A stretch of DNA of 59,299 bases from Trichoplax sp. H2 (taxonomy: Eukaryota), in NCBI GenBank assembly GCA_003344405.1, contig NOWV01000153.1, positions 124,001 through 183,299 of the forward strand, read 5' to 3'. Shown piece after piece: positions 13,418 through 59,299 of the stretch. The translations under genes and the position numbers were made by a program. Position 1 is the first letter of the stretch. Every line of letters begins with the position of its first letter. The notes beneath the pieces are model-generated. The model worked only from the letters and a program-made list of their open reading frames with translations. It searched no databases and was not told the DNA's origin.

Positions 13418-13581
13418 AGTGGGATAGGATGAAGTTTATTTGGATAAGATGAAAAATTTTCTATTTGCAGTTGATTGATTTCTAGTTCAATTGCGATCTT
13501 CAAGCAGTTGTTGAAATGATCAATTTGACTTAGTTTTAATTTACAAATTTAGATAATTTTCAGCGAAGGGAACTATCGAAT

Positions 13582-34600: not shown

Positions 34601-34609
34601 TACAGTATT

Positions 34610-35980: not shown

Positions 35981-36029
35981 AATGGATGTTTTAAAAATAG
36001 GCTAATAAGAATATGACGATTTTGCTGAG

Positions 36030-36179
36030 TGTTACGATGCGTAAGCTCGTCCTAATTATTTTGGGTGCCAAGATTCCTTCAGTAATAAATGATAGTAAAT
36101 CTCTGACTATCTCGTCTACATCATCTGTGACGCTATAATTATACCATAGTATTCGGTTGTTGGAACTGAATTATTTGGT
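36030..36179 (-). mobile_element. Partial solo-LTR-like insertion (runs into the gap), same family as 39333-39664 in opposite orientation
   Basis: Begins TGTTACG exactly where the pre-gap copy departs from the post-gap empty copy (ctgag|tgttac vs ctgag|atgtaa at ~36347). 36061-36179 is the exact reverse complement of 39426-39544. Confidence 0.7.
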
Positions 36180-38780: not shown

Positions 38781-39153
38781 TAAGCTTGTATTGTATTCCC
38801 TGTTTTTGAAGGGTTATCTGTTAGGATAGTTAAATTAATTTAGAAGAGTAATTTAAGAAGGTAAAGGCATTCTATAATAATTTTGTCTTGGCGCATATTT
38901 TATAAGTTCAATTTAAATGTACGATAAATTATAAGCTGTATTGAAGATGGCTTTGAGAATAGGCTGTTTGCATTCTAGAAATTTTGTTCGTTGTTCTTTG
39001 ACAGAATGATGTCATTCCTACCAATAGTTTGCAAAGCCCGCTGCAATCGGCTAATGCTAACATTGGGATGTGCCTTTTGGTACCAGTAATTGAGCAATTC
39101 CATTGCCTGGTTAAAGACTTGGTCGCGATTTTGTTCCATTATAACCTTAACAC
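38781..39153 (-). repeat. Gap-flanking duplicate (probable second haplotype) of the death-domain exon 3' part and 3' UTR, lacking the LTR insertion
   Basis: Matches 39174-39332 plus 39670-39883 with three substitutions; adjacent to the gap at 39154-39173; stop codon at 38975-38977. Confidence 0.85.
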
Positions 39154-39332
39154 NNNNNNNNNNNNNNNNNNNNTAAGCTTGTATTGTATTCCCTGTTTTT
39201 GAAGGGTTATCTGTTAGGATAGTTAAATTAATTTAGAAGAGTAATTTAAGAAGGTAAAGGCATTCTATAATAATTTTGTCTTGGCGCATATTTTATAAGT
39301 TCAATTTAAATGTACGATAAATTATAAGCTGT

Positions 39333-39664
39333 TGTCACACACCACTAGTGACAAAGTAGTCTACACACGCCAATCCTTGCGGAGAACGCCACTTACTAAT
39401 TTAAAGAGGCGAGATTAGCTATATCACCAAATAATTCAGTTCCAACAACCGAATACTATGGTATAATTATAGCGTCACAGATGATGTAGACGAGATAGTC
39501 AGAGATTTACTATCATTTATTACTGAAGGAATCTTGGCACCCAAGATTATAGTCTTCACAATTAAATATCAATTGAAAACTAGTTGACTATCTAACCGAC
39601 TAACGAACTAAAAAGGAATCTTCAGGCATCAGCCTTTTATAGTCTCGTCAGAAACTCCTTAACA
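39333..39664 (+). mobile_element. 332-bp solo-LTR-like element with 5-bp target-site duplication (orientation arbitrary)
   Basis: Termini TGTCAC...TTAACA. GCTGT is duplicated at 39328-39332 and 39665-39669. The empty site with a single GCTGT is visible at 38935-38939. Confidence 0.85.
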
Positions 39665-39704
39665 GCTGTATTGAAGATGGCTTTGAGGATAGGCTGTTTG
39701 CATT

Positions 39705-39967
39705 CTAGAAATTTTGTTCTTTGTTCTTTGACAGAATGATGTCATTCCTACCAATAGTTTGCAAAGCCCGCTGCAATCGGCTAATGCTAACATTGGGATG
39801 TGCCTTTTGGTACCAGTAATTGAGCAATTCCATTGCCTGGTTAAAGACATGGTCGCGATTTTGTTCCATTATAACCTTAACACAAATCGTTGGATCTAGG
39901 ATGGCCGCTAACTGTGGCCAGTCTGTGCCAATAGAGCTTGCAATAGGGTGAAAATACTTCCTAGGAT
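39705..39967 (-). CDS. Terminal exon encoding a death domain (paralog 1)
   Basis: DPRKYFHPIASSIGTDWPQLAAILD...NQAMELLNYWYQKAHPNVSISRLQRALQTIGRNDII follows the ankyrin/RIP/FADD-type death-domain pattern; phase-1 acceptor at 39968-39969. Confidence 0.88.
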
Positions 39968-42900
39968 CTATATAGTACAAGTAGAAACTTTACTATGAAG
40001 TACTATACGAGTATGTTGTAACAATTTCAATTGCAAATAAATTACTTGATTTTACATGATATAAAGTACAATATTTACATAATGAGCTCTTATGTCGCAA
40101 TTAGAGTTGAATAATCATCTGGTTCGCTATAATTATTTATGTAATGGTAATAATGGCATTAGCGACAGCACAGGTGGAACTGTACTTCTATTGTAAGACT
40201 AATAGAAATAAATGGCTCTAATTCGAATTTGAATAACTCTGTAAACGAACTACTTACTGGACAAACAATGTACAAATAAATTAAGATTGAATATTTTTAA
40301 TTCATAAATCATTATTTATTATGTTCAGTAGCTTACTAGTAGCAAGAATATTTTAATGACGATCTTAAAAATTCGTCAGTGATATCATTATCTAGTAAAA
40401 CTGTATGCGATCATATCATCAGTGGCAAACGTAGCTTAAAGAATTACATCCATTGACGAGGTAAGGTATTCCTATGTTAGAATTTACACGAAGTAATTGC
40501 TCTTAATCATATTTGAATCGATCTACAATTGGATTACTAAATGCAATTGAGAATGATTGATAGATATCAATTCAATAGAGGTTTACCTTCATCTTTGGTA
40601 TCTGTCCATCGGTCTAAAGTAGTGGAATAAAAATAGTAATAATCGATTAATAGTTCTATCGTTTAAGTAATCAATGCAGTAGATTAGTGCCCATAATTTT
40701 TGATAATAATCAACTATTGTTTACGCTATTACAAAATCACCTTATATTAAATAGTAAAATAGCTATGATACAGTACATTTATGTCTCTTTGCTTGCTCTA
40801 TCGTATGAATTTAGTTTATGATATCATAAAAAGTGATAATATAAGAATGAAGCTGCTGTTTATTCTCACATGCTTACCTATCCAGAATTTTTCATTATAA
40901 ATCACCCAATCGTTTAAAGATTGACTGGCAAATTCCATCTTACAATGCTTACATCGAATCCAATATTGATCTCCTTCCTTGTATTCTTCAGTTATACTTG
41001 TTGGTGTATTACATTCACTACATTTGACGAAATATCGACAATCAGCCCCTTTAAACTTAACCATCCTATCATTGACAGTGGAGATGAGTTTATTCTTGAC
41101 AATTTCGTGTGGCCGTTTGACAAATACAGAATTTTTAACTTTATCGATAATCGATTGACTCCTCTCGGGCTCATTTATTTTCTGATAGGAATATTGTAAA
41201 CCGATATGAGATTCCTCTTTCTTGACTACAAGATAGTGATTGTCATTTGCTAAATAATATTTGGCACATTGATAGTATAATTCTACGTCCGTATTATTCC
41301 ATTCCTTTAAACATGAAGATAACAAGCAATAATAAATTCCATCTGGAAGATATGCAATATCTGTATGCTCGTATCCAATGTAGAGCCAATCTGATTGATG
41401 ATATTTTGGTAAATCAAATGGCTTAACATCATATCGTAACAAGTATGGAACAAAGTATTGACATTCTTCGCCGTTGTCGTTCTTCTCATTTGTAATTGAA
41501 CATAGAATATCATAAGTATGCATGAGTGCCAATATAGTTTGCTTACTATTGTCATCTAAATTAAATTTATAAATAGCATGATCAATGTATGATCTTGATA
41601 ATTTTCCTGTTTGGCTGGCTATATCATAGTCACGTTTTATCTGTGCACTTCCTTGTACAAAATCTTGTAATTGAATAATAGAACGAAATATACTTAATAA
41701 CCAATCGACATTAGTTATAATAATTCCGTCGTCGCCTACTTTATCACAGTAGATGACTTCTCCTAAATCGTGTAGATACATTAGCATAGCGATTAATTCA
41801 TCATGGTTTTCATATAATCCGTATTGTTGAGACAAGGTTACTATTTGTTGCATTGTCATAATATTATGCACTTGAGAATGTCTAATTTGATTCATAATAG
41901 AAGATGCGGGTTGATTGTTAGTAGGGAGCGATTTATTTAATATTGTAGCCATGATATACCATCGAATAGGTATAGGATTCGTAATAAATGGCAGTGATTG
42001 TACAAATGCCTTAATGATACCATGTAAACGAAGACAACATTGTTGACGCAGCTTCTGTGTCGACGGAGTACTATCAAGAGGATTGCAATCAAAAATAATA
42101 CCAGAAGAATAGATATGACTGGCATAAGAAGGCATGTGAGACGTCAATGTAGACACAAATTGATTAAATCGAGTACGTCCATCTTCTTCATTGGTAATAC
42201 AATCGCCATGAGAAGCTACTAAAATAATAATAGGTAATGAATGCTGTGAAGGTGGTAAATCCTGTCCGTCTTCACTTTTAATGCTCACATCGATGGTACT
42301 TTGGCTTGTATGGCCAGCTATGATTGATGTAAGCCATTCTTGCATAGCTTGTAAATACGTCGTTTTGAGTGATTGGTTGTTCCTTGTTGTTACCTTGTCG
42401 TTAATGTCTTGCTTAATATTAAATACTAAAATATAAATACTATTGACGGAGATAAAGGGATAATGAGTAAGATGATAGACGGCATGACCTGCGAAATCCC
42501 ATATTTTAACATACTGATTTTTATCGTCTTTTTCTGTATTTTGATTTTCCATGGACGAACAGTAATATTGATCTAAGTCTCGTTTAGACTGTGGTTCTAT
42601 TGCAATCTCTGTCCTTGCTATCGCTGCATCTTGCGTAACGATATTCGTTGCAGAAGAATCGACACTGTGTTGTTGCCCATTTGACACAGATGGATTATTG
42701 GTTATAATGGGTTGATCTATTGGATCCATGTCGGTTACTTGCTGAATGATGTTATCTCGACTATCGATACTTGTTAGGGCTATGTCTTGTATGACTGTCG
42801 TGACTGTATCGTCTAGTATTTCAGTCCAATCACAACCCTCTAAGTTCATAATATTATAATATTCAGTCTCTACCATAATATCCGAATTCTCAGCCACTTG

Positions 42901-45874
42901 TGTTGGAGATGGACTGTTGAGTGGTTGCTTGGTAAATATTTTTCGAACAGAAGTTTTGCCCACATTGCGAGGGCCAATAAACATGCCTCGTATTAAACGA
43001 TTAAAGCAATGGCCATGTTTTAATGCTTTGCTATATGCATTGTAATATTTCTTTTCTTGCAAAGCTGTAGAACAACAAAATGCAGAATAGGGTTACGGTT
43101 ATCCATCGCTCTCTCGTCTACTACTGTATTAAAACTCTACTTACGTTTCTCTTGTACGTGTTGGTTGTTATGGCTGCCGTCGATCGTATTTGCTGGCGCT
43201 ATATCGTTGTTGGTTTGATTCAGTTGAAACCGTTCAAGGATACTTTTGATCCAATTTCTCGCTATTGATGTCGGCGATTTCTGCTGCCGGAGAGCGATTT
43301 CGATATTCTTTTTGGTCATTGTAACTAGGCCATCATTTCCGCTTAAGGTTGCGATATACAGTGACTTGTTAAAGTTATCCAGAGCCTGATCGATCTTGCC
43401 TTGGTCATGATAGACACATCCTATGTTGTGATATGAGTTGGCAACATCAGGATGATTGTGACCAAGGACTGACAATCGAATTTGCAGTGACTTGTTATGC
43501 ATCTCCACAGCCTGATCGATCTTGCCTTGGTCATGATAGACACATCCTATGTTGTTATATGACCACGCAACATGGGGATGATTGTGACCAAGGACTGACA
43601 ATCGAATTTGCAGTGACTTGTTATGCATATCCATAGCCTGATCGTACTTGCGTTGGTCATGATAGACACATCCTATGCTGTTATATGACCACGCAACATC
43701 AGGATGATTGTGACCAAGGACTGACAATCCAATTTGCAGTGACTTGTTATGCATATCCATAGCCTGATCGTACTTGCCTTGGTTATGATAGACAATTCCT
43801 ATGTTGTGATATGACCACGCAACATTGGGATGATTGTGACCAAGGACTGACAATCCAATTTGCAGTGACTTGTTAAACATCTCCACAGCCTGATCGATCT
43901 TGCCTTGGCTTCTATAGACAACTCCTATGTTATTGTATGACCACGCAACATCAGGATGATTGTGACCAAGGACTGCCAATCGAATTTGCAGTGACTTGTT
44001 ATGCATATCCACAGCCTGATCGTACTTGCACAAGTCCCAGTAGAGGCGCCCAATTTGATGATAACTATCGGCAAGACGAGCANNNNNNNNNNNNNNNNNN
44101 NNATACTTTTGATCCAATTTCTCGCTATTGATGTCGGCGATTTCTGCTGCCGGAGAGCGATTTCGATATTCTTTTTGGTCCATTTAACTAGGCGATCATT
44201 TCCGCTTAAGGTTGCGATATACAGTGACTTCTTAAAGTTATCCAGAGCCTGATCGATCTTGCCTTGGTGACTATAGACAACTCCTATGTTGTTATATGAG
44301 TTGGCAACATCAGGGTGATTGTGACCAAGGACTGACAATCGAATTTGCAGTGACTTGTCATGCATCTCCATAGCCTGATCGATCTTGGCTTGGTCAAGAT
44401 AGACACATCCTATGCTGTGATATGACCACGCAACATGGGGGTGATTGTGACCAAAAACTGCCAATCGAATTTGCAGTGACTTGTTATGCATCTCCACAGC
44501 CTGATCGTACTTGCGTTGGTCATGATAGACACATCCTATGCTGTTATATGACCGCGCAACATCAGGATGATTGTGACCAAGGACTGCCAATCGAATTTGC
44601 AGTGACTTGTTATGCATGTCCATAGCCTGATCGTACTTGCGTTGGTCATGATAGACATATCCTATGCTGTTATATGACCGCGCAACATCAGGATGATTGT
44701 GACCAAGGACTGACAATCGAATTTGCAGTGACTTGTTATGCATCTCCACAGCCTGATCGTACTTGCCTTGGTCATGATAGACACATCCTATGCTGTGATA
44801 TGACCACGCAACATCAGGATGATTGTGACCATCGACTGACAATCGAATTTGCAGTGACTTGTCATGCATATCCATAGCCTGATCGTACTTGCCTTGGTGA
44901 TGATAGACAAGTCCTATGTTGTTATATGACAGCGCAACATCGGGATGATTGTGACCAAGGACTGACAATCCAATTTGCAGTGACTTGTCATACATCTCCA
45001 TAGCTTGATCGTACTTGCGTTGGTCAAGATAGATAACTCCTATGCTGTTATATGACCGCGCAACATCAGGATGATTGTGACCAAGGACTGACAATCGAAT
45101 TTGCAGTGACTTGTCATGCATATCCATAGCCTGATCGTACTTGCCTTGGCTTCTATAGACAGCTCCTATGTTGTTATATGACAGCGCAACATCGGGATGA
45201 TTGTGACCAAGGACTGACAATCCAATTTGCAGTGACTTGTGCAACATCTCCATAGCCTGATCGTACTTGCCTTGGTCATGATAGACACATCCTATGCTGT
45301 GATATGACTGCGCAACATGGGGATGATTGTGACCAAGGACTGACAATCGAATTTGCAGTGACTTGTCATGCATATCCATAGCCTGATCGTACTGGCACAA
45401 GTTCCAGTAGAGTCGCCCAATTTGATGATAACTATCGGCAAGACGAGTATCCTTTTCGTCTAACCATTTTAATTTCATTTCCAACGATTTCTTACCGTCT
45501 TCCAATGCTCCGTTGAAATCTTCTTGGCATCTCTTAATCTCGCTTTTTCTTTGTAAACATTGAGCCATGCTCACTTCATCTTGCAGTTTAGTAGCCACAG
45601 TTTGTCCCTTTTCACTCCAATCAACAGCTTCCTTGAATTGATATTGTAAAGTGTAAATGTCACAAAGACCAAGATAAATATCGCATGCAAGTCGATCAAT
45701 ATCCACACTAGGATTCGACAACGAAGCAATCGCATCGACAGCTTGTGTATAACAAGATAGTCCGTCCACCAACTGGAAGGCAGTCTTGCATGAGTTGCCC
45801 TTGTCGTACAGTGATTGTATACGGGTATGGTGAGGAAGCCCACTCGTGGAAGAGACAGATTCATCATCAGCCAT
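39705..45874 (-). CDS. Roco protein: TPR array - Roc GTPase - COR - death domain; exons 45874-43145 (contains gap/duplicated array), 43064-40878, 40613-40587, 39967-39705
   Basis: All three introns are GT-AG, phase 1 and keep the frame: GAGAAAC|gtaagt...ctacag|CTTTGCAA; TGGATAG|gtaagc...ctttag|ACCGATGG...GAAG|gtaaac...atatag|ATCCTAGG. Roc motifs are GPRNVGKTS, WDFAGH and SHGD. The C-terminal death fold reads IASSIGTDWPQLAAIL...QAMELLNYW...LQRALQTIGRNDI. Confidence 0.85.
40587..40613 (-). CDS. 27-nt symmetric (phase 1-1) linker microexon, DRWTDTKDE
   Basis: Flanked by ctactttag| and |gtaaac; a same-length exon with its own splice sites sits at the equivalent place in the paralog (57492-57518). 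Confidence 0.7.
40878..43064 (-). CDS. Roc-COR exon (~729 codons)
   Basis: ORF 40816..43062: P-loop MFIGPRNVGKTS, G3 KIWDFAGH, YILVFN, IILVASHGD, COR-type PIPIRW and LMYLHDLGEVIY, YFVPYLL, terminal CSEC...CKHC. Confidence 0.92.
43330..44080 (-). repeat. TPR tandem array version B: 6 units of 126 bp/42 aa (kinesin-light-chain/nephrocystin-3-type TPR)
   Basis: RLADSYHQIG unit followed by five xVAxSYxxIGxVYxxQ units in ORF 43137..44183. Confidence 0.9.
44190..45445 (-). repeat. TPR tandem array version A: 10 units of 126 bp/42 aa
   Basis: RLADSYHQIG unit followed by nine xVAxSYxxIGxxYxxQ...KSLQIxLxVxGHNHP-type units in ORF 43925..45886. Confidence 0.92.
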
Positions 45875-46504
45875 CTTTTCCTGCACTCAATTCAATAGTA
45901 TGTGAGTTAAAGACTTGAACGACAGGTTAGAGACAAATAAGATTTAAATTAAGCTTCGTTACAACCATGAATGACTAATCATCGGATCGATATTATCTCT
46001 GCGTATTCATGAGGTTATGTCGGAATGGTTGTACTTGCGTGCTAGTCGTAGTTCAACAGAACAACATTAATTATTCCATTATACACAATTTTCAAGTATC
46101 AATAAATCAACTTCTACAATGTCGTCTATCAATTCCGCATGGAAGATTATCCGAAAATCATTCAATCAATCTCTGTCAATGATTACTGAAGACAACGCTA
46201 TCGGACAATCGTGTGCTGACATCAATCAATACCAAACTAAATCCAAGGAGTAGACTAATTTACGTGTACATTAATAAAATGCACTCCAGCTTACAAATAC
46301 ATTATACTCATAATCATAATAACCGTCAAACAACAATCGTTTTATCCTGATAGACAACAGCAAATGAATGCTAGCCACATCAATGATAGTGCAAAATAAG
46401 AAAGGATGCTTGTAATACAGTTTCGTTGGAGTCGTTTACCTATCTATAATTTCTATTTTTACTTGAAATACAATGTATAATGATGGATACCTAAACGGAA
46501 TAGG

Positions 46505-46600
46505 TCACTTACCAATGGATGTTTTAAAAATCGGCTAATAGAACAACTTGATGATTTTGCTGTGATGTAGATTTAATCCTATCAATCCGACTGCGCACTG
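46505..46600 (-). promoter_or_regulatory. Probable non-coding first exon and donor of the Roco gene
   Basis: aaaacatccattg|gtaagtgac (donor at 46512) is conserved in the pseudogene copy at 35979; acceptor gtgcag|gaaaagATG at 45881. Confidence 0.6.
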
Positions 46601-46904
46601 CTTATTGCAAACAGGAGCTAGTGGATAAAAGAGGAGGACAGGTGAAATAAAACTCTACTCGGCTAAACAGCTCTATCCAAGTGCATATACACTAAATACA
46701 CGCACTTATCAGCGATTACAGACTACTAATTCATTGGTTATTTCATACCTATAAGTACTCCTTGCAAAAGTCCTGCATGAGGAAGGGCGCTATTGATAAC
46801 CATGAAGCTTGCTTGGCTAAAAATCCCAGTTGACGCCTGTGGCTATGTCGCGCTTTACTCTTTAGTAGTCCATATGCGACACTGACAACTATTGGTCCCT
46901 ATGT

Positions 46905-48805
46905 GACCCGATACAAATTGATTAAATGGAGTTTTTCAATCTTCTTGTTTTGTAATACAATCGCTATAAGAAGCTACTAGAAATAATAATAAGTAATGAA
47001 TACTGTTCATCTTCGCTATTAAAGTTTACATTTATTGTACTTTGCCTTCTATGGCTACCTATGGTCGGCGTAAGCCATTCTTGCATAGCTTGTAAATAAG
47101 TCATGTTCAGTGATTCGTTCTGTCTTGTTCATACCTTGTCATTAATGTCTTGATTCATATTAAAGACTACAATATAAATACTATTAGCAGAGATCAATGG
47201 AGAATGATTAACATGATAGATGGCATGACCACCGAAATTCCATATTTTAACATATTGATTATTATTACGTTTATTGGTTCTTTGATCGATGATAGACGAA
47301 CAGTAATATTGAGTTAAGGCGAGTTTAGACGCTGATTTGATTTCAATCTCTTTCAATGGTATGGCTACTTCTTTTGTAGCATTACCAACTATAGGAGATT
47401 GCACATTGTCTTTTTTGTAAATTTGGCAATGGTAGGTTATCTGTTAAAACGGGTCGATGTATTGGATGCACACGGGTAATTTACTGATTGATATTCTCTT
47501 GACTATCGATGCTTGTTTTGACTTTATCGTCTACTACCTCAGTCCAGTCACAACTCTTTCAATTATGAATACCATACTATTCAGTCTCCACCATGAAATC
47601 AGAATTCTCAACCACTTGTGTAGGAGATTGATTAATGATTAATACTTGTTGAATAAATACTTTTCTAACAGAAGATTTACCCACATTGGGAGGGCCAATA
47701 AACATGCCTCATATTAAATTATGATAGCAATGACCTTGATTTAATGCCTTGGTATACGCATAGTCATATTCCTTTTCTTGTAAATCTGTAGGATAAAAAG
47801 TACAGAATATTGTTGTTATGATATAGGACTGTATTTATGGTAGTCTTGAATACTAGTGCATTAAAATGCTGTTGTCGATCGACGAAGCTATATCTTGGAC
47901 GTGTTGATTAACATCATGATTATCTTTCCCTCTTTTCGCCATTGACGTTGACTGATTATACTGTGATCGTTGCACCAGGGGAGTAATGGCCATATTGTCT
48001 TTCGTTTTTTTTCCAACTTCGGGATGATTTACGCCTAAGGCTGGTAGTATAATACTGAGTGACTTATTATACATATCCAGAGCCTCATGGTGCCTTCCTT
48101 GTCTAGAATAGATACTCCAATGTTGTTCTATAAGAGCCCAATATCATGATGACTGTGACCAAGAAGTAATAATCGAATCTTGAGTGGCTTGTTATATGTA
48201 GAAAGAGCCAAATTATACTCGCCTCGTTTCTCATAGACAACTCCAATATTGTTATATAACATCGGGATGATTGTGACCAAGAACTAATAATCCAACTTTA
48301 AGGGATTTGTCATACTTAGAAAGCGCCTTTGTAGACTTGCCCTGATGACTGTAGATGCGCCCAATCTGCGGATAACTATCAGCAAGGCGTGGATCATTTT
48401 TAATGGAAACATTTTAATTTCAAGTTCAGCTATTTATAACAGCCTTCCAGTGTTTCTTTCCAATCCCATTACCATCCCTTAATCTTACTTTGTCTGTCTA
48501 ACTATTCAGCCATTTTCACTTTATCTTGCAGTTAAGTAGGCAGAGATGTCCCTTTTCTTTCCATTCTTTGCTTTCTTCCGTTCTTTTTGTAAAATATAAA
48601 TATCGCACATATCAAGACATATATCGCATCGAAGTCGATTAATCTTGACACAAGGATTGCAAAACACTTGAATCTCATCTAGAGCTTGCGTAGAATAAGA
48701 TAATCCTTGGGTTCAATTGTAGGTAGTCTTGTACTTTTCACCATTTTCATACAATGATTGTATATGAGGAGGAATTATAGAGTGGATGGATTTATTATCG
48801 GCCAT
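46905..48805 (-). pseudogene. Decayed TPR-Roc paralog, truncated within Roc (no COR or death exon)
   Basis: ATG at 48805 in the same aagATGGC context, PRLADSYPQIG, degenerate TPRs (LGHNHPDV, LGVNHPEV), homologous acceptor at 47786, MFIGPPNVGKSS, KIWNFGGH, YLQAMQEWLT; multiple stops and frameshifts. Confidence 0.88.
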
Positions 48806-49399
48806 CTTTTCTTTGACTATTTTTAGAAAGAATCGATCAATGGAAAATGTTGAGTCGATTTGATAACTTCAATTTAAAAAAACGACAAGTTAGTGCCAAT
48901 TTGAATAAAGTCTTGTTGCAATAATCGATTACGGTACTTGTCAGCGAATTGATATTATGCTTATGTAATTAATGGAATAGTAGGGCGATGCCGGGTACAA
49001 ATTTATATGCATACGATTCGTATTCCAACACAGAAATACAAACAATTCGGTTATTTAAAAGGTTGAACAATAATTCAAGATGCTCCTACAAACTCATATA
49101 TAAATGTAACTAGAAATTTATCTTGAAAATGCAACCATCCATGTTGCAAAGACCGAGGCTGGACTGTCACTGAATAATGAAATCTAATTGTACAGTAGAT
49201 GATAACTTTAGACACAGCGCTAGTGAAGAATCTTTTGCATCAATTTATGAAAAATTAATGTTAATGACATTTATAATTGAATAAGATTCTTAAGATAGCA
49301 TGTACAGTAAGATGGCTTTTGTCCACGTCTTTTGGAAACCTTCAATTTCTATTTTTAGTTCAAAAGTAAGGAATAATGTGATAGAAATTCAAGCAAATG

Positions 49400-52300
49400 T
49401 CAAACTTACCAATTTAATTTTTTCATTACTGGCTAATGATAGTTTGATGTTATTTTGGGGCCGAAATGTAGGTATAATTCTATCAATTGCACTGTATGCT
49501 GCTTATTCTAACGATGAGCAAAGTCAGCAAATAGAACCAAATAGAATTGAAGATGGCATACGAGTAAACTTCTACCCACTAAAAATCCTATTACATTAGG
49601 CAAAAAATGTTCCCTACAACGTAGCCAGTTCAAAGGTAATCGATTTTCAACCTTCAATATGCGCGTACAAATATAATGGTAGTGAAATGATATTCTGTCA
49701 TGTGCATGTTGTTGGATATGTCCAAATTCATGATTCTTCAAGGTGCCATTTTCAGCCCAAGTGTCCTATGAGATACTATTGAAACTATGCAGCAATGGCT
49801 GTGCCAGGCTTGTACGGGTTCAGAGCAAATGTCATTTCTTCGCTTGCCTTCAAGGCTTCGTTGTGGTTAAAGTTGGGCAATTGGTTATTTTGTTGACCGT
49901 AGTTTGTTATTTCAGGGCGCAGCAGGCACGACTGTTGACCGATGGCCCATAATCTACAGCATTAACTTTACTTCATCATCCAGTTCAAAAACTTTATATA
50001 CTGTACTCTACTCGATACAAGTAGCAAGAACTACTAAATTTGAAGAGAGAGGACATATCATAATGTCCAACAAAATGGTCAATATGATACTGTTAAAGGC
50101 GTAGTCAATATTTGCCATTGAAATCATCCTTTATTAAAAGCATTTTATTGAGTAACAACACCGCACTCAATAGTGTTAGGTAGGGCATACCAAGTAACCA
50201 AATATAATCATCACTTCTTTGGATTGTGTAGCCATTTTTTGATCGTCATTTTAGACAACTTTATAGACGAGCAGATTTCCAATTGTAAAGTATTTGCTGA
50301 CACAGCTCTAAACTAGCTATCCAATCAAGTCACCATCAGTCAGTCATGTTGGTCATTAACGAATTTACAAGAGAACTGATTTTACGTTGCATAAGAATGC
50401 ATTTCACAACTTTCACCAAGGTACATTTTCTACATGCAGTGAGGAATCCTTTCAACTGGTATATGGCCATAGCCATTTTTAACGATTTACTATTAGATGG
50501 TCATTAACATTGAATTCACTGCTGTTTATATACCAAAGACACAAAGTTTGCAATCTACTTTGAAAAACGAATGGATAAAATAGTCATAGAGTTATCGGTG
50601 ATGGTGGCATGATTTAGTACGGCGATTTAGTCATCAGACTCCTTCCACATCGATGATGATTGCACCAACACGACGACTGCAAAATATTCAAGTCGAGGCT
50701 GATATCAGAAAGGATTAACACTAGTTTTATAGCCAAGAAATGCGTGGAGGAGTTTGCAGTACGCTGCAGGACTCGCTTTCACTCACCATTACCTCTAAAC
50801 ATGCTGAAAATTACGGAATCGACTACAGAATTGGAACGGTCTCCATGCTGGCATATGCCATTCAATACCTTACTGGATAAAACTTCTTAAACTGTTTCTA
50901 CATCAACTTGAGGCCAATGCAATAAGCAACATTAAAATGGTTGATCGATTGAACCAAGTCTAATTGCATTGGCTTGCCATTGCACGCGTAGACCATAGCG
51001 TGGACAACTGGGCATGCAAAAATGGAGACGAGGAGGCATTAATAAGTACACTGCCATTAAGGGATTCAATATATTATATACTGCGCTATAAGCGATTCAA
51101 ACTAGGATTTAGGGCATTATGCTAACTCTGCTGNNNNNNNNNNNNNNNNNNNNGCAGGACTCGCTTTCACTCACCATTACCTCTAAACATGCTGAAAATT
51201 ACGGAATCGACTACAGAATTGGAACGGTCTCCATGCTGGCATATGCCATTCAATACCTTACTGGATAAAACTTCTTAAACTGTTTCTACATCAACTTGAG
51301 GCCAATTGCGTTGGCTTGCCATTGCACGCGTAGACCATAGCGTGGACAACTGGGCATGCAAAAATGGAGACGAGGAGGCATTAATAAGTACACTGCCATT
51401 AAGGGATTCAATATATTATATACTGCGCTATAAGCGATTCAAACTAGGATTTAGGGCATTATGCTAACTCTGCTGTCTGCTTACTCGATATTTTACAAGA
51501 GTCTAATTTGATCACAAAGATTAAGTTAGAATATGGACTACTACATGAATTTATCATCTATAGATGACTGTGCAATGGTGAATTTGGACACACTACTATA
51601 CTGTAGTAGCAAGATACACTAATTCTGCATTAAAAACTGCACTGAGTAATCATGCACATCCATAGCTGCAAATTGCAATTCCTGTCTGTTAGGATTACGA
51701 TTGATTTGTTGGCATTCCATGGGCTAAAACTTGATTCTATCCAGTTTTTCTTCTACTGTAGTGAGCTACAAATACTTTCTGCCAGTCTTGGCTAACCTTG
51801 TCTTGATCGAAGCGATAGAATGCGATGAAATTGGGCAGAAAACCTGACTGAATGATCAAATACACCAGTTGCAATAGATGCCAATACCATGTCCATACTG
51901 TAATTTTCCAAGCTATGGCTACACAAACTAAATCGCTACATTGTTGGTTATAAAGTTGGATCAATCTTTTAACCATAGAGGTATTTTTTCACTTGTATCG
52001 TTTTAATTGATTTTAACGTTGGCTCATGGACGAAATTGTTTCCAACGCCTTTTCTACTCATGCAAGTTCTCAATCTATCGTAACTTGCAGTATATTGGCT
52101 GTGAAACTGGCGAAAAATAGCGACTTCTGTGGCTGTTGATACTATGGCGGGACCTACTAATGTAAGAACTGTGTAGAAAGTATGAGACTTGATCATTGCA
52201 GATCTACAAATACTCCTATTGCAAAAAAAGCGGTAAAGCTAAGCCAATTTACCTCACTTACATTACTATTACTTGCCTAGCGATTGTGCCTTCCACAGTC

Positions 52301-53620
52301 CTCGTATCTTAATAGAACTCATTTTTAGCATGGAAAAGAAAACATGGAATGCGTGACTGGGTGTTTTACTACGTTAGTCAACAGTGCCTTTATTCATCGA
52401 TCTAATGGTTAGATTGCCTAACGATGCTTACTAACTACTCAAGAGAAATCCGATTCAACTTAATGAAGAGAGAGAAATCTTGACTAACCATGATCGGTCC
52501 AATGAAACTTGACGCTTTCTTCCTTCCTTCCTTCTTCAAGCCATGTGGTGAAATTCCATTGACTTGCTAAATTGTAAGTAAATTACTTTATTAAATGAAT
52601 ATGAATCAGAAGCAAGACTCACTGAGTTGATATCTCGATCAATTTGTCTTACAGATTCTTGGATTTAATTCGCCGAAAGATTCTTTTGAAAATACTAACT
52701 AACATCGTCGTAAATGTTAGCATAACAAGCCAGGAGGAAGATTATAGTGACATGTTAGTAATGAAGCTTTAGGGCTAAACTACCTCTCACTAAAGGAACT
52801 TCTGAAAGGCAAAGTATCCCTTTTCAATAGGTAAGTGTTTATTTAAATATCACAGCAGTAGATAGCAGCGTAGAGAGAGTAGACATTTCTGTTAATGCGG
52901 TACTATCATCATCATTGACACAGTAGAAAATTCCCTCATGAAATGATTGACACAGGTCCATTCGTTTAGAGTAAGTAAGACAAGTTTGAACTTGATAGTC
53001 AATCTACTGTCTTGGCATCATCTTGCAGTGTAATGCAAGATGATTTTCGACATCATTCACAGTACAGTACATCTGTCTACAGTTAACTAAGACCTCATTA
53101 GGCCATCAATCGATTATAATTCGTCTCCATTTGACCAATAGCAACATAATCAATGACAAGCAATGATTGCTTTCATGAATGATGCCGATGCGAATTCACT
53201 TTTAAGTTAATTGCGTTGGTAACTTTGTTTCACGGTTCAACTGGAAAATGAATTTACCTACGTTCAAGTATGTTATAAGCCAGCTGATGAATGGCCAAGA
53301 TTTGCGCCAAGCATGATTTACAGGCTTAATTGGGTTATATATACAGTATATCCATCATAAGGTAAATGCAAGTTAACAAATGGACGTACAATTTCCATGA
53401 CATGTACATCTCCATTTCCATCTACAGTTTCCATGACTTCAATTTTGACTTCAATTTTGAATTTTTTGTTAACTTTAATTATCATCGATTCCTAATTTTG
53501 TTCAAGCTGTATTACACATTCTAATGTCTGCAACTGTATGCTGCAATGCCCATCATTGCTATCCAAATTACCTTGATTTTGAAAAGTATGGTTGATGCTC
53601 TCCATGATACGATACATTCT
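49400..53620 (-). pseudogene. Possible remnants of one or more decayed multi-exon genes of unknown family
   Basis: Locally higher GC, protein-like minus-strand fragments broken by stops (e.g. RIMNLDISNNMHMTE; ORFs at 49508-49741, 51737-51976, 51969-52196) and donor-like sites (e.g. attg|gtaagt at ~49409). No family could be assigned. Confidence 0.25.
50766..51475. repeat. Gap-flanking duplication (50766-51133 vs 51154-51475), probable haplotype overlap with a 46-bp indel
   Basis: Near-identical sequence on both sides of the gap at 51134-51153. Confidence 0.85.
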
Positions 53621-56600
53621 GTATCCTACAAAGGCATCATTTTTTTGTTTTGCTACTATGATCCACGTAGATCTTTATTCAGTTATGACTTGTAAATTGA
53701 TGGTGACGACCATGGACGTCAAAACAAGTCCTTGCATTTGTATTGTAAGATTAAAGAGAACATAGCAGCTAAAATGGTATTGCAAAAGTTAGCAAAAATA
53801 TCTCATTCATGGTATTAGTATAGGTTATAAGAGCATTTCCATACCAAATGGTTACAGTCAATGAAGCGAAATTCCTTGAAATAAGGAAGCAGAAATAGAA
53901 GCAAACACTATCACCTTTTAAGTAGTAATCAAGAAAGACATTGGTAATCAGGCGTAACTTATATCTAAAAAAATTTCTACAATATCGTAGAATGAACCGA
54001 GAAATAATGCACCTTCAATATTTTTAATTTAAGGGGGGGCACTAAACGGCTCCTTTCTGTCGTTCACTTTTAGGAGTCTGGTGCAGAATACTTTTTTTGA
54101 TTTTAATATACTGTAAGTGTAAATATGTCGAAATTATCCAGGCTATATCTCAGTCTTCACCATAATCACGCAGTCACTTATGGAATCAGATGTTGTAGAC
54201 TATCAACTTCGTTAAAAAATTACGGCAATGGTTAACACGTTGTCAGCAATCATAGTTAAGTGTAAAGTATAAACCAAACGCAAGTGAGACGAGACTTTAC
54301 TTTATTGTGAATTGTTGTGAGACTAGGGATCTCAACATGGCCTACTAGTAAAAAATCTTGATTTTTATTATTTAATTAGCTCATACTGCTGAACTCACAC
54401 ACCAGCTACTGTCACAATTGGTTATCATAACTTATACAGTAGTTCCATGGCTTCAACTCTTAATCAAGACTATTTGATTAATTTTTGCTAACTTTAGTCT
54501 TCAGGAAATGACATGAAGCCAGTAAAGCAAATTTAAAATCAGATGGTAAGGTCAATTATTATTAATGGATGTGAAAATCGTGCCTTGCTAGCTACCTCTA
54601 ACTTACAGTATAAGTTTGATATCTTGTTAATGTTAGTAGTTCCGTGGATTCAATTCCTGATCAAAACTGCTAGCAAATCTTGGCTAACATAGTTGTCAAG
54701 AAAATTTAGTGAAGTTGGTATACCAAACTTGAAGGAAGATGGAAAGATTAACTAGTTTGAATGGATATGAAAATCCTGCCTTGAATACGATCTTTAGCTT
54801 ATGGCATTGCCTTAGCGATGTTGTAAGAGTATTGGTCTATATTTTTTTCTTTTGACAACAATTATTCCTACACAAAGATTAAATCTTTAAAAAGAAATAA
54901 TCACTCTCATAGCACATTTATTCTTAGCCTTTGAATGACTTTTCTATACCCTTTGAAACTTTCAATTTGAATTATTTTTTCTTATAACTAATCACTACTT
55001 CCAGTGAAGATTAGTTTCCAAAGTATGACGTTGTTTTAGTTACTTGCCAACCGGATAGAAAAGGTTATTTTTATCATTTTACACCATCCAGTATTTATAT
55101 TTTCTAGCTTGACTACTCGAGCATTTGATGAAGAGTTTACTACATTTTTAATGTCAATAGAGTACAATATTGAGCTATAAGAGCTCAATTAAGCAATTAT
55201 AGGCTCAGAAATTAAGTCTCTTGATTTATGATAATTGCTTATGATTTTATTTATTTAAGTAATTTTATTATGTTGCTATTGATGATAATACAGTATGACA
55301 GAATACGAGAAGTATTTTTTTCAGTAGAAAAAGTAAGTCATGGATATTGCAACCAAACTTAGCTAACTAATGCTATCGGTAATAAACAATGAAATTTTTA
55401 TATTGCTTTTATCAAAGTTAGGAGTAGCAGTAGCATAATTAATACGTGTGTTACAATTCAGAATAGTAATATCACTAGAAGTAAAATAGAGTAGATAAGA
55501 TTTTATAAATTTACGGTACGTTTATACTTCAAAATGAGCGATCTTGTAGGCACAACTTAACGCTATCAATAACAACATAAATATCTTCCAACTACCGTAA
55601 GCGTGTTGATCTAATGGCTTAAAACTGAATCTAAAGCCGAAATGATTCTCTTAGTCTATTCGCATGCATTATAAATTACGGGTATAGTGTAATATCGTTC
55701 TAATGTACAATGGTAGCTATCGATTTTAAGTCACCGAAATTTCCATATTAAAAATTAGTGCTATCTATATATGTGCTTATGGTGATTTCAGTATGCTACA
55801 GTAGTAGCAAGTTGACGGAGTCGTTACGATAGCTTCTGCCTCACATAGTTATTGAAAGGTATTCTTGATTAGGTTATTTGTGAGAACTTATTAAAAAATT
55901 ACCATTGCAAGGGATCAACTCTATTAACAGCTATGGTCTTGCTATAGCTACAACTAATTTTTGTTTATCTGCATATTGAATAATGATTTAATCTTTCCTT
56001 TATTAAAATTATACATGGCTACACCACTGTGTAGTTATAGAAAGTCATAATTCTTAGTTTGTTGTTTTAAGTTAATGCATTACTCAATTTTTTTGCAATT
56101 AACGTTACATTATCGACAGCTATAGAGAGCGAATAATAAATTGTTGCTGTTCGTTATATTTATTAATGTATAGTAATTGATCCACTATAGAGCCTTTTAC
56201 AACGTTAAATTACACAACAGAGGACTTAAGATGCAACAGAAAAAAACTACTTGAGTCAGCAGTAAAAGCTAGAGGGATAATCATTCACAATGAAACGAAA
56301 GTACCTACTGCGCTAAACTACTGTAAAACTAGATTACGGTAAAACGTTTTTATGTAAAAAATATAAACATAAATATTACTAGATTTTGAATATCTTGATA
56401 AAAGTTTATTTACTACTGTCACGACCGAGGTTATGAAGCATAGAGATTATATAAAATTGGAATACTGGACGTTCGTTGATCCGGTATAACTACCGTACCT
56501 CATAAATTAACATTGACTAGAATTGCTCTTGAAATATTAGTCTCTGTGCTGATATATATCTTAAGAATTACGATTTGTCTAGTTTAAATACTATGGAAGA

Positions 56601-56658
56601 AATTTATAAAATTAACCATAATATGACCTCTAGCAGCTATGATATTTATCTCTCCTAT

Positions 56659-59299
56659 TCATTCGGTCATTTTTTGTTCGACTTCGTCAGCTAAAGCATT
56701 TATTTCCATCTTACGTAAAGCTTCAACCACTGCAGAGATTTTAGCATTCATCCCAGCTTTATCTTTCCACGATTTTAGAATATTGTGCACTTTATCGTAA
56801 CGTCCTTCATTCTGGCTTGATTTAATTTCATTAATCTTTGTGTCCGTTAACTTTAATAACACTCCAAAACGAACTATATGGGTTCCATTAAGTTTTGCTG
56901 CTATTAAATCGAAGCATGCTCTCTCTATTTTTATGTAAAAGCAAAGGAAAAATTCATGAAACAAAATTGGCAATATTAGCATCGTTTCAAGTCATCAGTA
57001 ATGTATCTGATCTAGAACACAGGCCTAAGAATGATATTAAGCAATTTTCCTTCACAATAACTATAAATTTATTCCCATGATCTTAACATGCAATCCACTG
57101 TTAATATTAAATGATATTATTGATTCTCAGTCACCATATTTTGCTGATTCAATTTCTTAATAGTTATGAGTACTTATTAAAGCTTGCTGGACGAGCTCTT
57201 TTAAAATTAAATTAAATCGGAATGGTAATTTATCAATGACCGTTTACTATATTGAGTGATTTTGGTAGTTAATATACCATATTGTAATTACAATCCCAAA
57301 ATGTTCATTATGCAATATAATAAGCTAGCAAAATTTTATGCGCTCACATAATCAGCGACAAAAATATTATAACTATTTAAGGCAGGATCTGTTGTAATAT
57401 TTGCTCTAATTCGTACTTATATCAATCTATAAATTAATTGCTATATGCATTTTTGAAATGACTGGTAGATATCAATTCAGTCGAGGCTCACCTTTATCTT
57501 CTGCATATATCTTTCTTTCTAAAGAAATGAGGTGAAAATAGGAATAATCAATTAGTAGCCCTATCATAACTTTTTTAAAACAGATGATAGAGTTGCAGGC
57601 ATGCAAATGAAATGTATGATTCTCTAAAGAGTTTACGAAGATAGTTTTCTCCCTTTATCTTTCTAGGTGCTTTTACAAGCAGGAAATGCTATCTATGGTA
57701 ATTTCTATACGTTGCATAAAACGACGAAACTAATTGGCTATTAAACAATTCAATATTAATGACTTATCATGCACTAACGTTAAAAAACAAAATACTATAG
57801 GGAACAGCGATAAATAAAATCCAGCCGTTTCTATTTACTACACAAATGAAATGCAGTAGATGAAGTACTCATTTTGAATTATTACAATCCATAATACATT
57901 TTCAGTAATAAGAAATATACTAAAATCAGAAAATATTATTGCAGTTAAATAGTAAAATAGCTATGATACAGTACATTTATGCCTCTTTGCTTGCTCTAGC
58001 GTATGGCTTCAGTTTATTATATCATGAAAAGTGATAATATAAGAATGAAGCTGCTGTTTATTCTCACATGCTTACCTATCCAGAAATTTTCATTATAAAT
58101 CATCCAATCGTTCAAAGATTGACTGGCAAATTCCATCTTACAATGCTTACATTGAATCCAATTTTGATCTCCTTCCTTGTATTCTTCGGTTATACTTGTT
58201 GGTGTATTACATTCACTACATTTGACGAAATATCGACAAGCAGCCCCTTTAAACTTGACCATCCTTTCATTGACAGTGGAGATGAGTTTGTTCTTGACAA
58301 TTTCGTGTGGCCGTTTGACAAATATAGAATTTGTAACTTTATCGATAATCGATTGACTCCTCTTGGTCTCATTTATTTTCTGATAGCAATATTGTAAACC
58401 GATATGAGATTCCTCTTTCTTAACTACAAGGTAATGATTGTCATTTGCTAAATAATATTTGGCACATTGATAGTATAATTCTACGTCCGTATTATTCCAT
58501 TCCTTTAAACAAGAAGATAACAAGCAATAATAAATTCCATCTGGAAGATATGCAATATCTGTACGCTCGTATCCGATGTAGAGCCAATCTGATTGATGAT
58601 AGTTTGGTAAATCAAATGGCTTAACATCATCTCGTAACAAGTATGGAACAAAGTATTGACATTCTTCTCCGTTGTCGTTCTTCTCATTTGTAATTGAACA
58701 TAGAATATCATAAGCATCCATGAGTGCCAATATAGTTTGCTTACTATTGTCGTCTAAATTAAATTTATAAATAGCATGATCAATGTAGGATCTTGATAAT
58801 TTTCCTGTTTTGCTGGCTATCTCATAGTCGCGTTGTATCTGTGCACCTCCTTGTACAAAATCTTGTAATTGAATAATAGAACGAAATATATTTAATAACC
58901 AATTGACATTAGTTATAATAATTCCGTCGTCGCCTACTTTATCACAGTAGATGACTTCTCCTAAATCGTGTAGATACATTAGCATAGCGATTAATTCATC
59001 ATGGTTTTCATATAATCCGTATTGTTGAGACAAGGTTACTATTTGTTGCATTGTCATAATATTATGCACTTGAGAATGTCTAATTTGATTGATAATAGAA
59101 GATGCGGGTTGATTGTTACTGTTAGTAGGGAGCGATTTATTTAATATTCTAGCCATGATATACCATCGAATAGGTATAGGATTCGTAATAAATGGCAGCG
59201 ATTGTACAAATGCCTTAATGATACCATGTAAACGAAGACAACATTGTCGACGCTGCTGCAGTGTCGACGGAGTACTATCAAGAGGATTGCAATCAAAAA
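56659..59299 (-). CDS. Second Roco paralog, 3' part (5' end beyond window): Roc end/COR exon >59299-58076, microexon 57518-57492, death-domain exon 56924-56659
   Basis: COR region is ~93% identical by eye to paralog 1, with the same TGGATAG|gtaagc donor. Phase-1 microexon ERKIYAEDK. Terminal exon ERACFDLIAAKL...RFGVLLKLTDTKINEIK...VHNILKSWKDKAGMNAKISAVVEALRKMEINALADEVE has a death-domain pattern. Confidence 0.87.

Follow-up and report, generated by a model that had tools for sequence, protein, structure and literature searches.

Civiero et al. (2014, Chem Biol, PMC4104024) reported at least 17 genes of Trichoplax adhaerens in which TPR, LRR, CARD and death domains surround Roc-COR. The two genes described here, A and B, belong to the same family, and their public matches are Trichoplax proteins of that architecture. 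The ROCO family itself is already described; in its accessible text the paper lists architectures, and there is no description of near-identical paralogs that differ in their death domains, of breakpoints in introns, of the 27-nt linker microexon or of tree incongruence.

In brown algae, clustered ROCO genes that have been proposed as immune receptors diversify via in-phase exon cassettes (Teng et al. 2024, PMC11378527). According to the accessible text of that study, shuffling there affects the sensor side and acts on LRR exons of 72 bp and phase 2, whereas in Trichoplax the unit is a C-terminal death-fold output exon bounded by phase-1 introns.

The order of Roc-COR and then a death domain in one chain is shared with DAPK1, and the Pfam Roc model that matches gene A is named "Roc, domain of DAPkinase". 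Human DAPK1 is a ROCO protein with kinase, calmodulin-binding and ankyrin parts and a C-terminal death domain. Orthology to DAPK1 was considered and rejected, as the upstream exon of gene A encodes TPR only, with no N-terminal Ser/Thr kinase or ankyrin repeats. The names Nephrocystin-3 and kinesin light chain, given to ROCO genes in the source annotation, are misleading; the likeness to gene A is confined to the TPR (TPR_12-type repeats), and to our knowledge neither NPHP3 nor KLC contains Roc-COR or a death domain.

Chimeric paralogs that arise from unequal crossing-over or conversion are known from plant NLR clusters, from domain re-assortment in fungal NLRs and from haemoglobin Lepore, and the process is well known in tandem receptor clusters of other families. 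The present locus shares with these chimeras a sharp switch of ancestry and an effector re-paired with a conserved nucleotide-binding core. It differs in the core, where a Roc-COR GTPase takes the place of a NACHT or NB-ARC ATPase, in the placozoan host, and in the joints, which are introns flanking a microexon.

Two neighbouring ROCO genes and their splicing

The window, by which we mean the whole 59,299-nucleotide stretch of Trichoplax sp. H2 DNA that was analysed, contains two neighbouring placozoan ROCO genes on the minus strand, both with the architecture TPR-Roc-COR-microexon-death domain (Table 1). Gene A spans 45879..39705, and gene B runs from beyond the end of the window to 56659. 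Splice joints were taken from the contig runs X1, X7, X19 and X20, where X1 is "RNA-like" and its RNA nature is a guess. The public protein or gene models P0001, P0010, P0011, P0012, P0013, P0015 and P0023 were used for comparison.

Table 1 Positions of the ROCO gene parts and related blocks in the window
Feature	Position	Strand	Evidence
Gene A terminal exon, ankyrin/PIDD-like death domain	39705..39967	-	Pfam Death 2.4e-10; CDS 39708-39967, stop 39705-39707
Gene A microexon, 27 nt, phase 1-1	40587..40613	-	Joint 40613>40878: X19 (2 contigs), X20 (1 contig); in-frame model
Gene A intron 1 start, common to gene B	40747..40877	-	blastn; 124/131 identical to B
Gene A Roc-COR exon	40878..43064	-	Pfam Roc 1.5e-10, COR-A 1.5e-10; joints 43064>43145 (X19), 40613>40878 (X19, X20)
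Gene A TPR exon	43145..45879	-	Pfam TPR_12 1.7e-147; joints 43064>43145, 45879>46512; N run inside at 44083-44102
Gene C, frame-broken TPR-Roc fragment, ROCO family	46909..48805	-	tblastn pieces in frames -1, -3, -1, -2, ending 46909
Gene B terminal exon, FADD-like death domain	56659..56924	-	Pfam Death 6.5e-11; CDS 56662-56924, stop 56659-56661
Older homology block round gene B microexon	57144..57565	-	60-75% to A 40218-40660; blastn 73% over 168 nt
Gene B microexon, 27 nt, phase 1-1	57492..57518	-	X1 joints 56924>57492, 57518>58076, CT..AC ends; in-frame model
Gene B intron 1 middle, without counterpart in A (86 nt there)	57566..57944	-	Local score 15 vs 10.9 ± 1.7 shuffled; gaps in global alignment
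Gene B intron 1, first 131 nt, high-identity block	57945..58075	-	124/131 identical to 40747-40877
Gene B COR part of Roc-COR exon, past window end	58076..59299	-	Pfam COR-A 1.3e-11; joint 57518>58076 (X1)

In gene A, Roc and COR are encoded in one exon, with COR directly C-terminal of Roc. Roc scores 41.8 bits against a Pfam cut-off of 27 and shows the GxxxxGKT and DxxG motifs in translation, COR-A of both A and B lies above the Pfam cut-off of 35.3, and the TPR exon is also matched by Pfam TPR_NPHP3. The COR exon of gene B contains a C-terminal CxxC...CxxC motif. Together with the flanking split codons, the microexons encode DRWTDTKDED in A and ERKIYAEDKE in B, the latter peptide being identical in P0010. 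The death exon of A starts at 39967, a small correction to the first-pass annotation, and the 3' UTR of B reaches at least 56235, with an X1 contig covering 56235-56924.

The spliced models of both genes are open, with GT..AG at 5/5 introns checked. All junctions checked are phase 1, as read from the coordinates of in-frame models, and so is the TPR|Roc intron, as judged from the reading frame and the joint 43064>43145. This bears out the earlier claim of phase-1 acceptors at both death exons: the COR exon of B ends at 58076, one base into a codon, and its death exon opens with the two bases that complete one. For these exons, contig backing covers only the junctions of B, plus the COR-microexon junction of A. 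The splicing of 56659-56924 to the COR exon, on which the earlier reading depended, is seen in a single transcript-like X1 contig that runs from 56924 via the microexon to 58076 (the run is only guessed to be RNA, and the short side is 27-29 letters). P0010 uses the same splices and is 100% identical to spliced B.

These contigs also bear on a possible assembler jump from one paralog to another within the near-identical COR, which would place the B COR and death exon on separate molecules. The assembly is imperfect, as there are five 20-N gaps in the window with duplicated flanks (fully or almost fully identical in four cases, ~87-93% in two), and one duplication is a false second copy of the end of the A death exon. 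However, such a jump would need to fall in unique intron, where an X1 contig (57805-58105) crosses 57945 with 0 differences. The spliced X1 contig links the DD-B exon and the microexon to a COR end placed on the B copy, not on A; run X7 covers 30/30 bins; and an independent public model on a 183-kb contig gives the same chimeric protein. We therefore regard an assembly or annotation artefact as very improbable.

Other family fragments are present in the window. Gene C is 74% identical in DNA to the Roc region of gene A, has weak Pfam Roc and TPR matches, and has no COR or death exon; TPR pieces occur on both strands at 34584-35345. These rearranged fragments indicate that the locus recombines. 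In a tblastn search with 14 family tails, the two known death exons and an artefactual partial copy at 38978-39151 were the only matches, and the direction of a swap can therefore not be read from a leftover exon. There was no Rfam match at the gathering threshold over 36000-59299, and no inverted repeats were found in 39300-39700. X1 depth is absent over the gene A COR (40728-42055) and gene C, where lack of cover does not mean silence. An X7 joint, 40665>47378 (side 22), and an X1 loose end at 40586, where microexon A runs on into other letters, match no assigned gene; the loose end hints that microexon A may at times be spliced to a different terminal exon.

Mosaic structure and two breakpoints

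The COR proteins of A and B are identical at 377 of 407 positions (93%), the level given by the first-pass annotation, and the DNA of 57945-59299 is 95.9% identical to 40747-42095 over 1355 columns (blastn). The near identity claimed for the first ~125 nt of the next intron extends over 131 nt. Per 50-column step, identity stays at 43/50 or above until A 40752 / B 57950, and then falls to 19/50 and 0/50. A recent recombination breakpoint thus lies at ~57945, where A-B identity collapses within 50 nt. The raised-identity block includes non-coding sequence and ends abruptly, as expected of a conversion tract, and its 5' end lies beyond the window. The Roc of gene B is likewise off-window, and an X1 contig runs from the B COR into sequence 97.8% like the A Roc region (11 differences in 489 nt).

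Past this point similarity is limited to patches round the microexon, again as described earlier. The blastn match (57398-57565 vs 40494-40660, 73% over 168 nt) belongs to a block that extends to A 40218 / B 57144, characterized by a local score of 49 vs 15.2 ± 2.0 (200 shuffles, z = 16.6). This older block spans the 27-nt microexon and ~230 nt of the next intron, and ends at an older breakpoint, ~57144. Between the death exons no DNA similarity was detected (local score 9 vs 10.0 ± 1.3 shuffled, z = -0.8), nor was any between the 3' UTRs (z = 0). Each intron next to the microexon contains one breakpoint, and the two differ in age. The 60-75% block could, however, owe its conservation to splicing constraint acting on the microexon flanks, and need not mark a separate older event. 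The B microexon peptide matches the P0011 model, and the 15 in-frame codons directly upstream do so residue for residue, unlike A.

Divergence between A and B is even along 405 codons. The COR dS of 0.062 matches the 7/131 differences (5.3%) in the shared intron, and the shared block thus has one neutral age. The COR dN/dS is 0.47.

Death-domain types and the COR tree

That the terminal exons encode very different death domains was confirmed: A and B share 19% identity over 84 aligned columns (BLASTP E 4.3), and both still match Pfam Death (PF00531; A 40.8 bits, B 42.7 bits, cut-off 22.6). The best solved relatives of the B death domain are FADD death domains (3.4e-6), and that of the A death domain is the ankyrin-1 death domain (8.6e-5). 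Among family members, the B death domain is 79% identical to P0011, and the A death domain is 95% identical to P0001 and 61% to P0015. From these similarities we assign the two to different old subtypes, ankyrin-like in A and FADD-like in B.

A search with DD-B of 1.84 billion representatives matched 22 at E <= 1e-3, of which 20 were scanned with Pfam; 19 were Death-positive and P0039 was without a match. Eleven of the 19 are short models (74-225 aa) with one Death stretch, one is a model of 394 aa with a C-terminal death domain, and seven have at least two Death stretches, with CARD also present in one of them and COR-A in one. The 20 scanned matches revealed neither partners nor other architectures.

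In a COR tree of 29 rows, A and B form one clade with P0013, P0001 and P0012 (support 100/99). P0011 lies outside this clade as its sister (96/92), on a long branch of 0.47. COR identity to B is 92.6% for A, 94.3% for P0001 and 62.5% for P0011. The comparison of COR and death-domain phylogenies proposed by the first-pass annotation gave incongruence in both directions. On the death-domain data, AU tests reject the COR clade as a single death-domain clade (delta lnL 135, p 7e-38) and the grouping of A with B (p 1.8e-10). On the COR data they reject B with P0011 (p 1.6e-4) and P0012 with P0023 (p 1.5e-9). Across the family, death-fold type (two death-domain types and CARD) is scattered over the COR tree, with 7 changes where the minimum is 3 and shuffled labels give a mean of 6.6.

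The annotation had offered two readings, that death exons are shuffled among family members, or that Roc-COR is homogenised while effectors diverge. The incongruent trees favor exchange, and divergence in place did not hold up, since the B death domain is P0011-like and the two domains are of different old subtypes. Divergence in place would mean a whole-gene duplication followed by very fast change of the death domain under positive selection on the effector, with no exon exchange. Death domains are short and quick to evolve, and the COR dN/dS shows relaxed or diversifying pressure. This account is nevertheless scarcely credible: non-coding similarity is also gone, both in the intron past 40218/57144 and in the 3' UTR; the B death domain is closest to a protein whose COR is only 62% identical; the two death domains match different solved subfamilies; and a common death-domain clade is rejected by the AU tests.

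Homogenisation could also take the form of continuing concerted evolution, in which repeated conversion of TPR-Roc-COR stops at a fixed boundary and the death exons are shielded by a dissimilarity that prevents pairing. In the A clade, at least five members whose Roc-COR is 87-97% identical bear three different 3' ends, and variable sites among them show mixed sharing patterns; both observations are in line with this process, as is the continuation of the high A-B identity into Roc. However, dS and intron divergence agree and are even along the COR, and no younger tracts are visible in the stepwise A-B identity, which looks like one event with one date. Furthermore, in P0012 the junction apparently lies after the microexon rather than before it, implying that the boundary is not fixed; this is read from a protein model, as are the breakpoints of P0011 and P0001, and models in tandem arrays can be mis-joined. 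We consider continuing homogenisation rather unlikely, and a single event is what the even divergence (dS 0.06; intron 5%) suggests instead.

Probable origin of gene B and re-pairing of death domains

Gene B is, in our judgment, probably a chimera of two family members made by ectopic recombination within an intron. The near-identical switch with unrelated death-domain types is accounted for if one gene is recombinant and was joined inside the intron. The 5' part of gene B would come from the young lineage of A; it comprises some or all of the Roc region, then COR, and ends with the first 131 nt of intron 1. The remainder of the gene would come from an older, different lineage, whose closest sampled member is P0011. 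To this lineage belong what is left of intron 1, intron 2 with the 27-nt microexon before it, the FADD-like death exon and the 3' UTR. One ectopic event between paralogs that broke within the intron, whether unequal crossing-over or non-allelic gene conversion, would have joined the two parts, and the older breakpoint in the next intron would mark an earlier exchange of the death exon. As to direction, two histories fit equally well: an A-type copy overwrote the 5' part of a P0011-like gene, or an A-type duplicate gained a foreign 3' end. It could also be A that is chimeric and B that is unrecombined, since P0011 is sister to the A clade in the COR tree, on a long branch.

By the criteria of Patthy, an exon-shuffled module has introns of one phase at its borders, and its exchange leaves the reading frame intact. 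Here the bordering introns share one phase (1-1), and the phylogeny of the death exon is incongruent with that of the rest of the gene. Family-wide, the Roc-COR core has probably been combined with a new death-fold type on many occasions, and every exchange would stay in frame because the flanking introns are all phase 1.

We infer that the protein acts as a GTP-dependent, dimerising Roc-COR switch with TPR input. The death domain would be presented to homotypic partners, and A and B would feed different putative death-fold partners downstream. The coupling of the same switch to different putative adaptors, as put forward earlier, is plausible.

Placozoans are among the simplest animals, and their death-fold and ROCO genes have undergone large expansions that have received little study. 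The locus provides a dated, base-level example of repertoire diversification, in which one intron recombination would re-pair an intact GTPase switch with another death-domain subtype. As a tentative extension, possible but short of an even chance, placozoan ROCO proteins may form a combinatorial receptor repertoire independent of NLRs. Phase-1 introns round a 27-nt linker microexon would then be preferred recombination joints that re-pair one TPR-Roc-COR switch with FADD-like or ankyrin/PIDD-like death domains or with CARDs. If so, near-identical sensors would be wired to different death or inflammatory outputs. A and B are two natural proteins that differ almost solely in the output domain. 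The pair is thus suited to comparing the adaptors recruited by either type of death domain in an early-branching animal, and to asking whether ROCO proteins fill the role of NLRs in placozoans.

Structure and splicing of genes A and B

The window is eukaryotic and AT-rich (GC ~30%), and the relatives of its encoded proteins are almost only placozoan (from Trichoplax sp. H2 or T. adhaerens), the related placozoan proteins being annotated at source as 'Nephrocystin-3' or 'Kinesin light chain'. The genes of interest, the ROCO paralogs A and B, lie on the minus strand. Their spliced models are open reading frames, with GT..AG at five of the five introns checked. Phase 1 holds at all junctions: the COR exon breaks off after the first base of a codon, the microexon preserves this phase, and the first two bases of the death exon fill up the split codon. 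Both death exons thus begin at phase-1 junctions, as the first-pass annotation had proposed.

Features of the ROCO genes and their surroundings in the window
Feature	Position	Strand	Match or remark
Gene A TPR exon	45879..43145	minus	Pfam TPR_12, 1.7e-147
Gene A Roc-COR exon	43064..40878	minus	Pfam Roc 1.5e-10, COR-A 1.5e-10
Gene A CxxC...CxxC motif	40910-41020	minus	COR exon end
Gene A microexon	40613..40587	minus	27 nt
Gene A death-domain exon	39967..39708	minus	Pfam Death 2.4e-10
Insert in gene A 3' UTR	39333-39660		high-copy element
Inverted partial copy of the insert	36055-36179		98.4%
Gene B Roc-COR exon, part inside window	59299..58076	minus	COR-A 1.3e-11
Gene B CxxC...CxxC motif	58110-58220	minus	COR exon end
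Gene B microexon	57518..57492	minus	27 nt
Gene B death exon	56924..56662	minus	Pfam Death 6.5e-11
Gene C, frame-broken TPR-Roc fragment	46909-48805	minus	tblastn pieces in frames -1/-3/-1/-2
N-terminal TPR piece	35345-34834	minus	adjoins the TPR repeat pieces
TPR repeat pieces	34584-34858	plus	
Neighbour ORF unrelated to the family	12302-13435	minus	intronless rhodopsin-family GPCR (7tm_1, 3.3e-46)
Neighbour ORF unrelated to the family	8937-9425	plus	weak globin match (8.8e-5)

Contigs from four public runs (X1, X7, X19 and X20) were aligned to 39400-59299. One contig from X1, a run with an exon-like depth profile whose RNA label is a guess, contains both gene B joints (56924>57492 and 57518>58076, bounded by CT..AC as read on the plus strand) and runs on through the gene B 3' UTR to 56235. 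P0010, a public gene model of 457 aa, is 100% identical to spliced gene B including the microexon. Splicing of the B death exon (56659-56924) to the COR exon is therefore seen in one contig and one independent model, and the lack of splicing that would speak against it was not found. The gene A joint 40613>40878 is present in X19 (two contigs) and X20 (one contig), both recorded as RNA libraries, and 43064>43145 was seen in X19. One X1 contig has a loose end at 40586, linking microexon A downstream to 26 letters other than the DD-A exon, which in phase reach a stop after two codons; this may be an isoform without a death domain or the transcript of an unsampled paralog.

A CxxC...CxxC motif lies between COR and the microexon in both genes, and cysteines occupy the same positions in distant family members, e.g. 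the placozoan protein models P0002 and P0007. The region gave only a weak Pfam match, to IBR_1, under the cut-off (E 0.0039); its cysteine pattern is probably that of a zinc ribbon.

Identity strata and breakpoints

Comparison of the two genes by blastn returned two blocks and no other matches: one pairs 57945-59299 with 40747-42095 (95.9% over 1355 columns), the other 57398-57565 with 40494-40660 (73% over 168). The COR proteins are identical at 377/407 positions, in agreement with the ~93% first noted, and near-identity does extend into intron 1, between the COR exon and the microexon, at whose shared start 124/131 positions agree. On global alignment, identity per 50 columns is 43-50/50 up to A 40752 / B 57950, then 19/50 and 0/50. 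The patchy similarity reported around the microexon was confirmed in a longer block, reaching A 40218 / B 57144 (local score 49 vs 15.2 +/- 2.0 in 200 shuffles), past which the intron shows likeness no higher than shuffled sequence. No excess similarity was found between the death exons (DNA score 9 vs 10.0 +/- 1.3 for shuffles) or the 3' UTRs (12 vs 12.0 +/- 1.7), and DD-A and DD-B, the death domains of the two genes, are indeed barely alignable (BLASTP E = 4.3; 19% identity, 84 aligned columns). The similarity thus falls into three strata (96%, 60-75% and none), so that two breakpoints are implied, in the introns on either side of the microexon.

Across 405 COR codons, dS between A and B is 0.062 and dN 0.029 (dN/dS 0.47), with the 42 changed codons dispersed along the exon. 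Since the shared intron diverges by 5.3%, the coding and non-coding parts have a single neutral age. No younger tracts are visible within the block, and this even divergence favours one event over ongoing homogenisation. The young block extends at least into Roc, because an X1 contig leaving the B COR at 59260 continues as sequence like A 42057-42545 (11 differences in 489 nt).

An assembly artefact is an improbable source of the composite structure of gene B. The window does contain such artefacts, in the form of duplicated gap flanks. However, an X1 contig (57805-58105) spans the breakpoint at 57945 without mismatch, X7 covers 30 of 30 bins, and the model from an independent assembly, on a 183-kb contig, gives the same chimeric protein. 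The five 20-N gaps (N runs 2241, 36180, 39154, 44083 and 51134) each carry duplicated sequence on their flanks, identical or nearly so at four gaps (e.g. 1845-1980 = 2261-2396, 35882-36029 = 36200-36347) and 87-93% identical at 44083 and 51134, a pattern that unresolved contig overlaps typically leave. The number of TPR repeats counted across 44083 is unreliable for this reason. The 3' end of the A death exon is present twice (38934-39153 vs 39664-39883, 98.6%, with the N run 39154-39173 between), and 38781-38939 recurs as 39174-39332 (100%). An insert of ~330 nt, with AGCTGT on both sides, is present in the right copy and missing from the one left of the gap, and an X20 (RNA) loose end before 39664 reads as 38904-38933. 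The stretch 38781-39883 looks like two haplotypes, with an empty and a filled site, assembled in tandem, and the 'second death exon' at 38934-39153 was rejected as an artefact of this apparent arrangement. The inserted element is a high-copy one, as X7 summed contig depth reaches 17,644 over 39400-40063 vs a few hundred elsewhere; it lacks terminal inverted repeats and matches nothing in Rfam.

Gene C, immediately upstream of gene A, shares 74% DNA identity with the A Roc and has neither COR nor death exon; a rearrangement probably left it behind. The TPR pieces at 34584-35345 are further debris of the ROCO family; the stretch 34885-36027 matches 45416-46562, which lies upstream of gene A, at 76% identity.

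Relationships of COR and death domains across the family

Searches with the A Roc-COR exon (E <= 0.001) gave 33 distinct proteins: the 'longer' search yielded 9 and the 'near' search 25, including P0010, which was already known; a search with the B death exon returned P0010 and P0011. C-termini were sorted by eye and by alignment into four groups: A-type death domains (gene A, P0001, P0015, P0016, P0025, P0003, P0004), B-type (gene B/P0010, P0011, P0007; P0012 and P0023 carry a subtype), CARD (P0002, P0008), and C-termini that lack a death fold or come from truncated models (the remaining family proteins). Among solved structures, DD-B is best matched by FADD death domains (3.4e-6) and DD-A by the ankyrin-1 death domain (8.6e-5), with weak matches to ankyrin-2, -3, PIDD and MyD88. 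By these matches, DD-A and DD-B are different, old death-domain subtypes.

The COR tree (IQ-TREE careful; 29 rows, 405 columns) was calculated without P0010, which is identical to gene B, and without P0014, P0030, P0031, P0033 and P0034, whose COR matches are short or poor. Genes A and B group with P0013, P0001 and P0012 (support 100/99), with P0011 as sister to this clade (96/92), followed by P0023 (91/84) and P0015 (100/99). COR identity to B is 94.3% for P0001, 92.6% for A, 92.4% for P0012, 71.8% for P0023, 65.8% for P0015 and 62.5% for P0011. Death-domain identity is 79% for B-P0011, 95% for A-P0001, 61% for A-P0015 and 68% for P0012-P0023. Death-fold type changes 7 times on the COR tree (minimum 3; mean for shuffled labels 6.6), so the output domain is wholly unclustered. 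AU tests reject congruence on both data sets, in line with the suspected conflict between the two phylogenies. On the death-domain data (14 rows, 92 columns), a single death-domain clade of the four COR-clade members is rejected (delta lnL 135, p 7e-38), as is A+B (p 1.8e-10), and the COR data reject B+P0011 (delta lnL 29.4, p 1.6e-4) and P0012+P0023 (delta lnL 69, p 1.5e-9); the groups were chosen after the pairwise identities had been seen, which somewhat weakens the formal p-values, and the margins are large.

The microexon peptide of B (ERKIYAEDK) is like that of P0011 (EKKIYREEK) and unlike that of A (DRWTDTKDE), and the P0011 model reads through 15 residues that are all identical to what the B intron encodes in frame just upstream of the microexon. 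The whole 3' part of B therefore belongs to the P0011 lineage. P0013, a public model on a 2.2-kb contig, is 99.7% identical to the A COR and re-enters the last ~95 COR residues after an A-type microexon peptide; it represents a collapsed repeat, or else a locus with a partial COR exon after the microexon.

Origin and possible role of the chimeric paralog

Taken together, the sequences argue that gene B is a chimera of an A-lineage 5' part and a P0011-lineage 3' part, joined in intron 1. Such a gene would arise equally from unequal crossing-over of tandem paralogs and from non-allelic gene conversion between them. The 60-75% block, beyond which the death exons are unrelated, points to an earlier exchange in intron 2, between microexon and death exon; the microexon flanks may also be conserved for splicing. 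The first-pass annotation had offered shuffled death exons or a homogenised Roc-COR with diverging effectors: recombination stands, and the data exclude that the death domain diverged in place. In the COR tree P0011 is placed on a long branch as sister to the A clade, so the recipient of a foreign 3' end could be A instead of B. Paralogs other than A and B are known here from protein models, which in tandem arrays can be mis-joined.

By analogy with established knowledge of ROCO proteins and death-fold signalling, the TPR repeats would receive input, Roc-COR would serve as a GTP-dependent dimerising switch, and the C-terminal death domain, on a short microexon-encoded linker, would recruit partners through homotypic binding. 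A and B would then link nearly the same switch to different partners.

Both the ROCO family and the formation of chimeric paralogs in receptor clusters are known. T. adhaerens has at least 17 ROCO genes, in which TPR, LRR, CARD and death domains flank Roc-COR (Civiero et al. 2014, PMC4104024), and shuffling of phase-2 LRR exons is described for brown-algal ROCOs in a paper that cites placozoan diversity (Teng et al. 2024, PMC11378527). Placozoan NLRs are treated in Kamm et al. 2019 (PMC6321704), where the word ROCO is absent. Full-text searches turned up no paper on exchange of death exons in placozoans or on placozoan ROCO paralogs that are chimeric, and the documented A/B instance with its intron joints appears not to be in print. 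As a case from an early-branching animal the A/B pair is clean and testable, although neither family nor mechanism is new.
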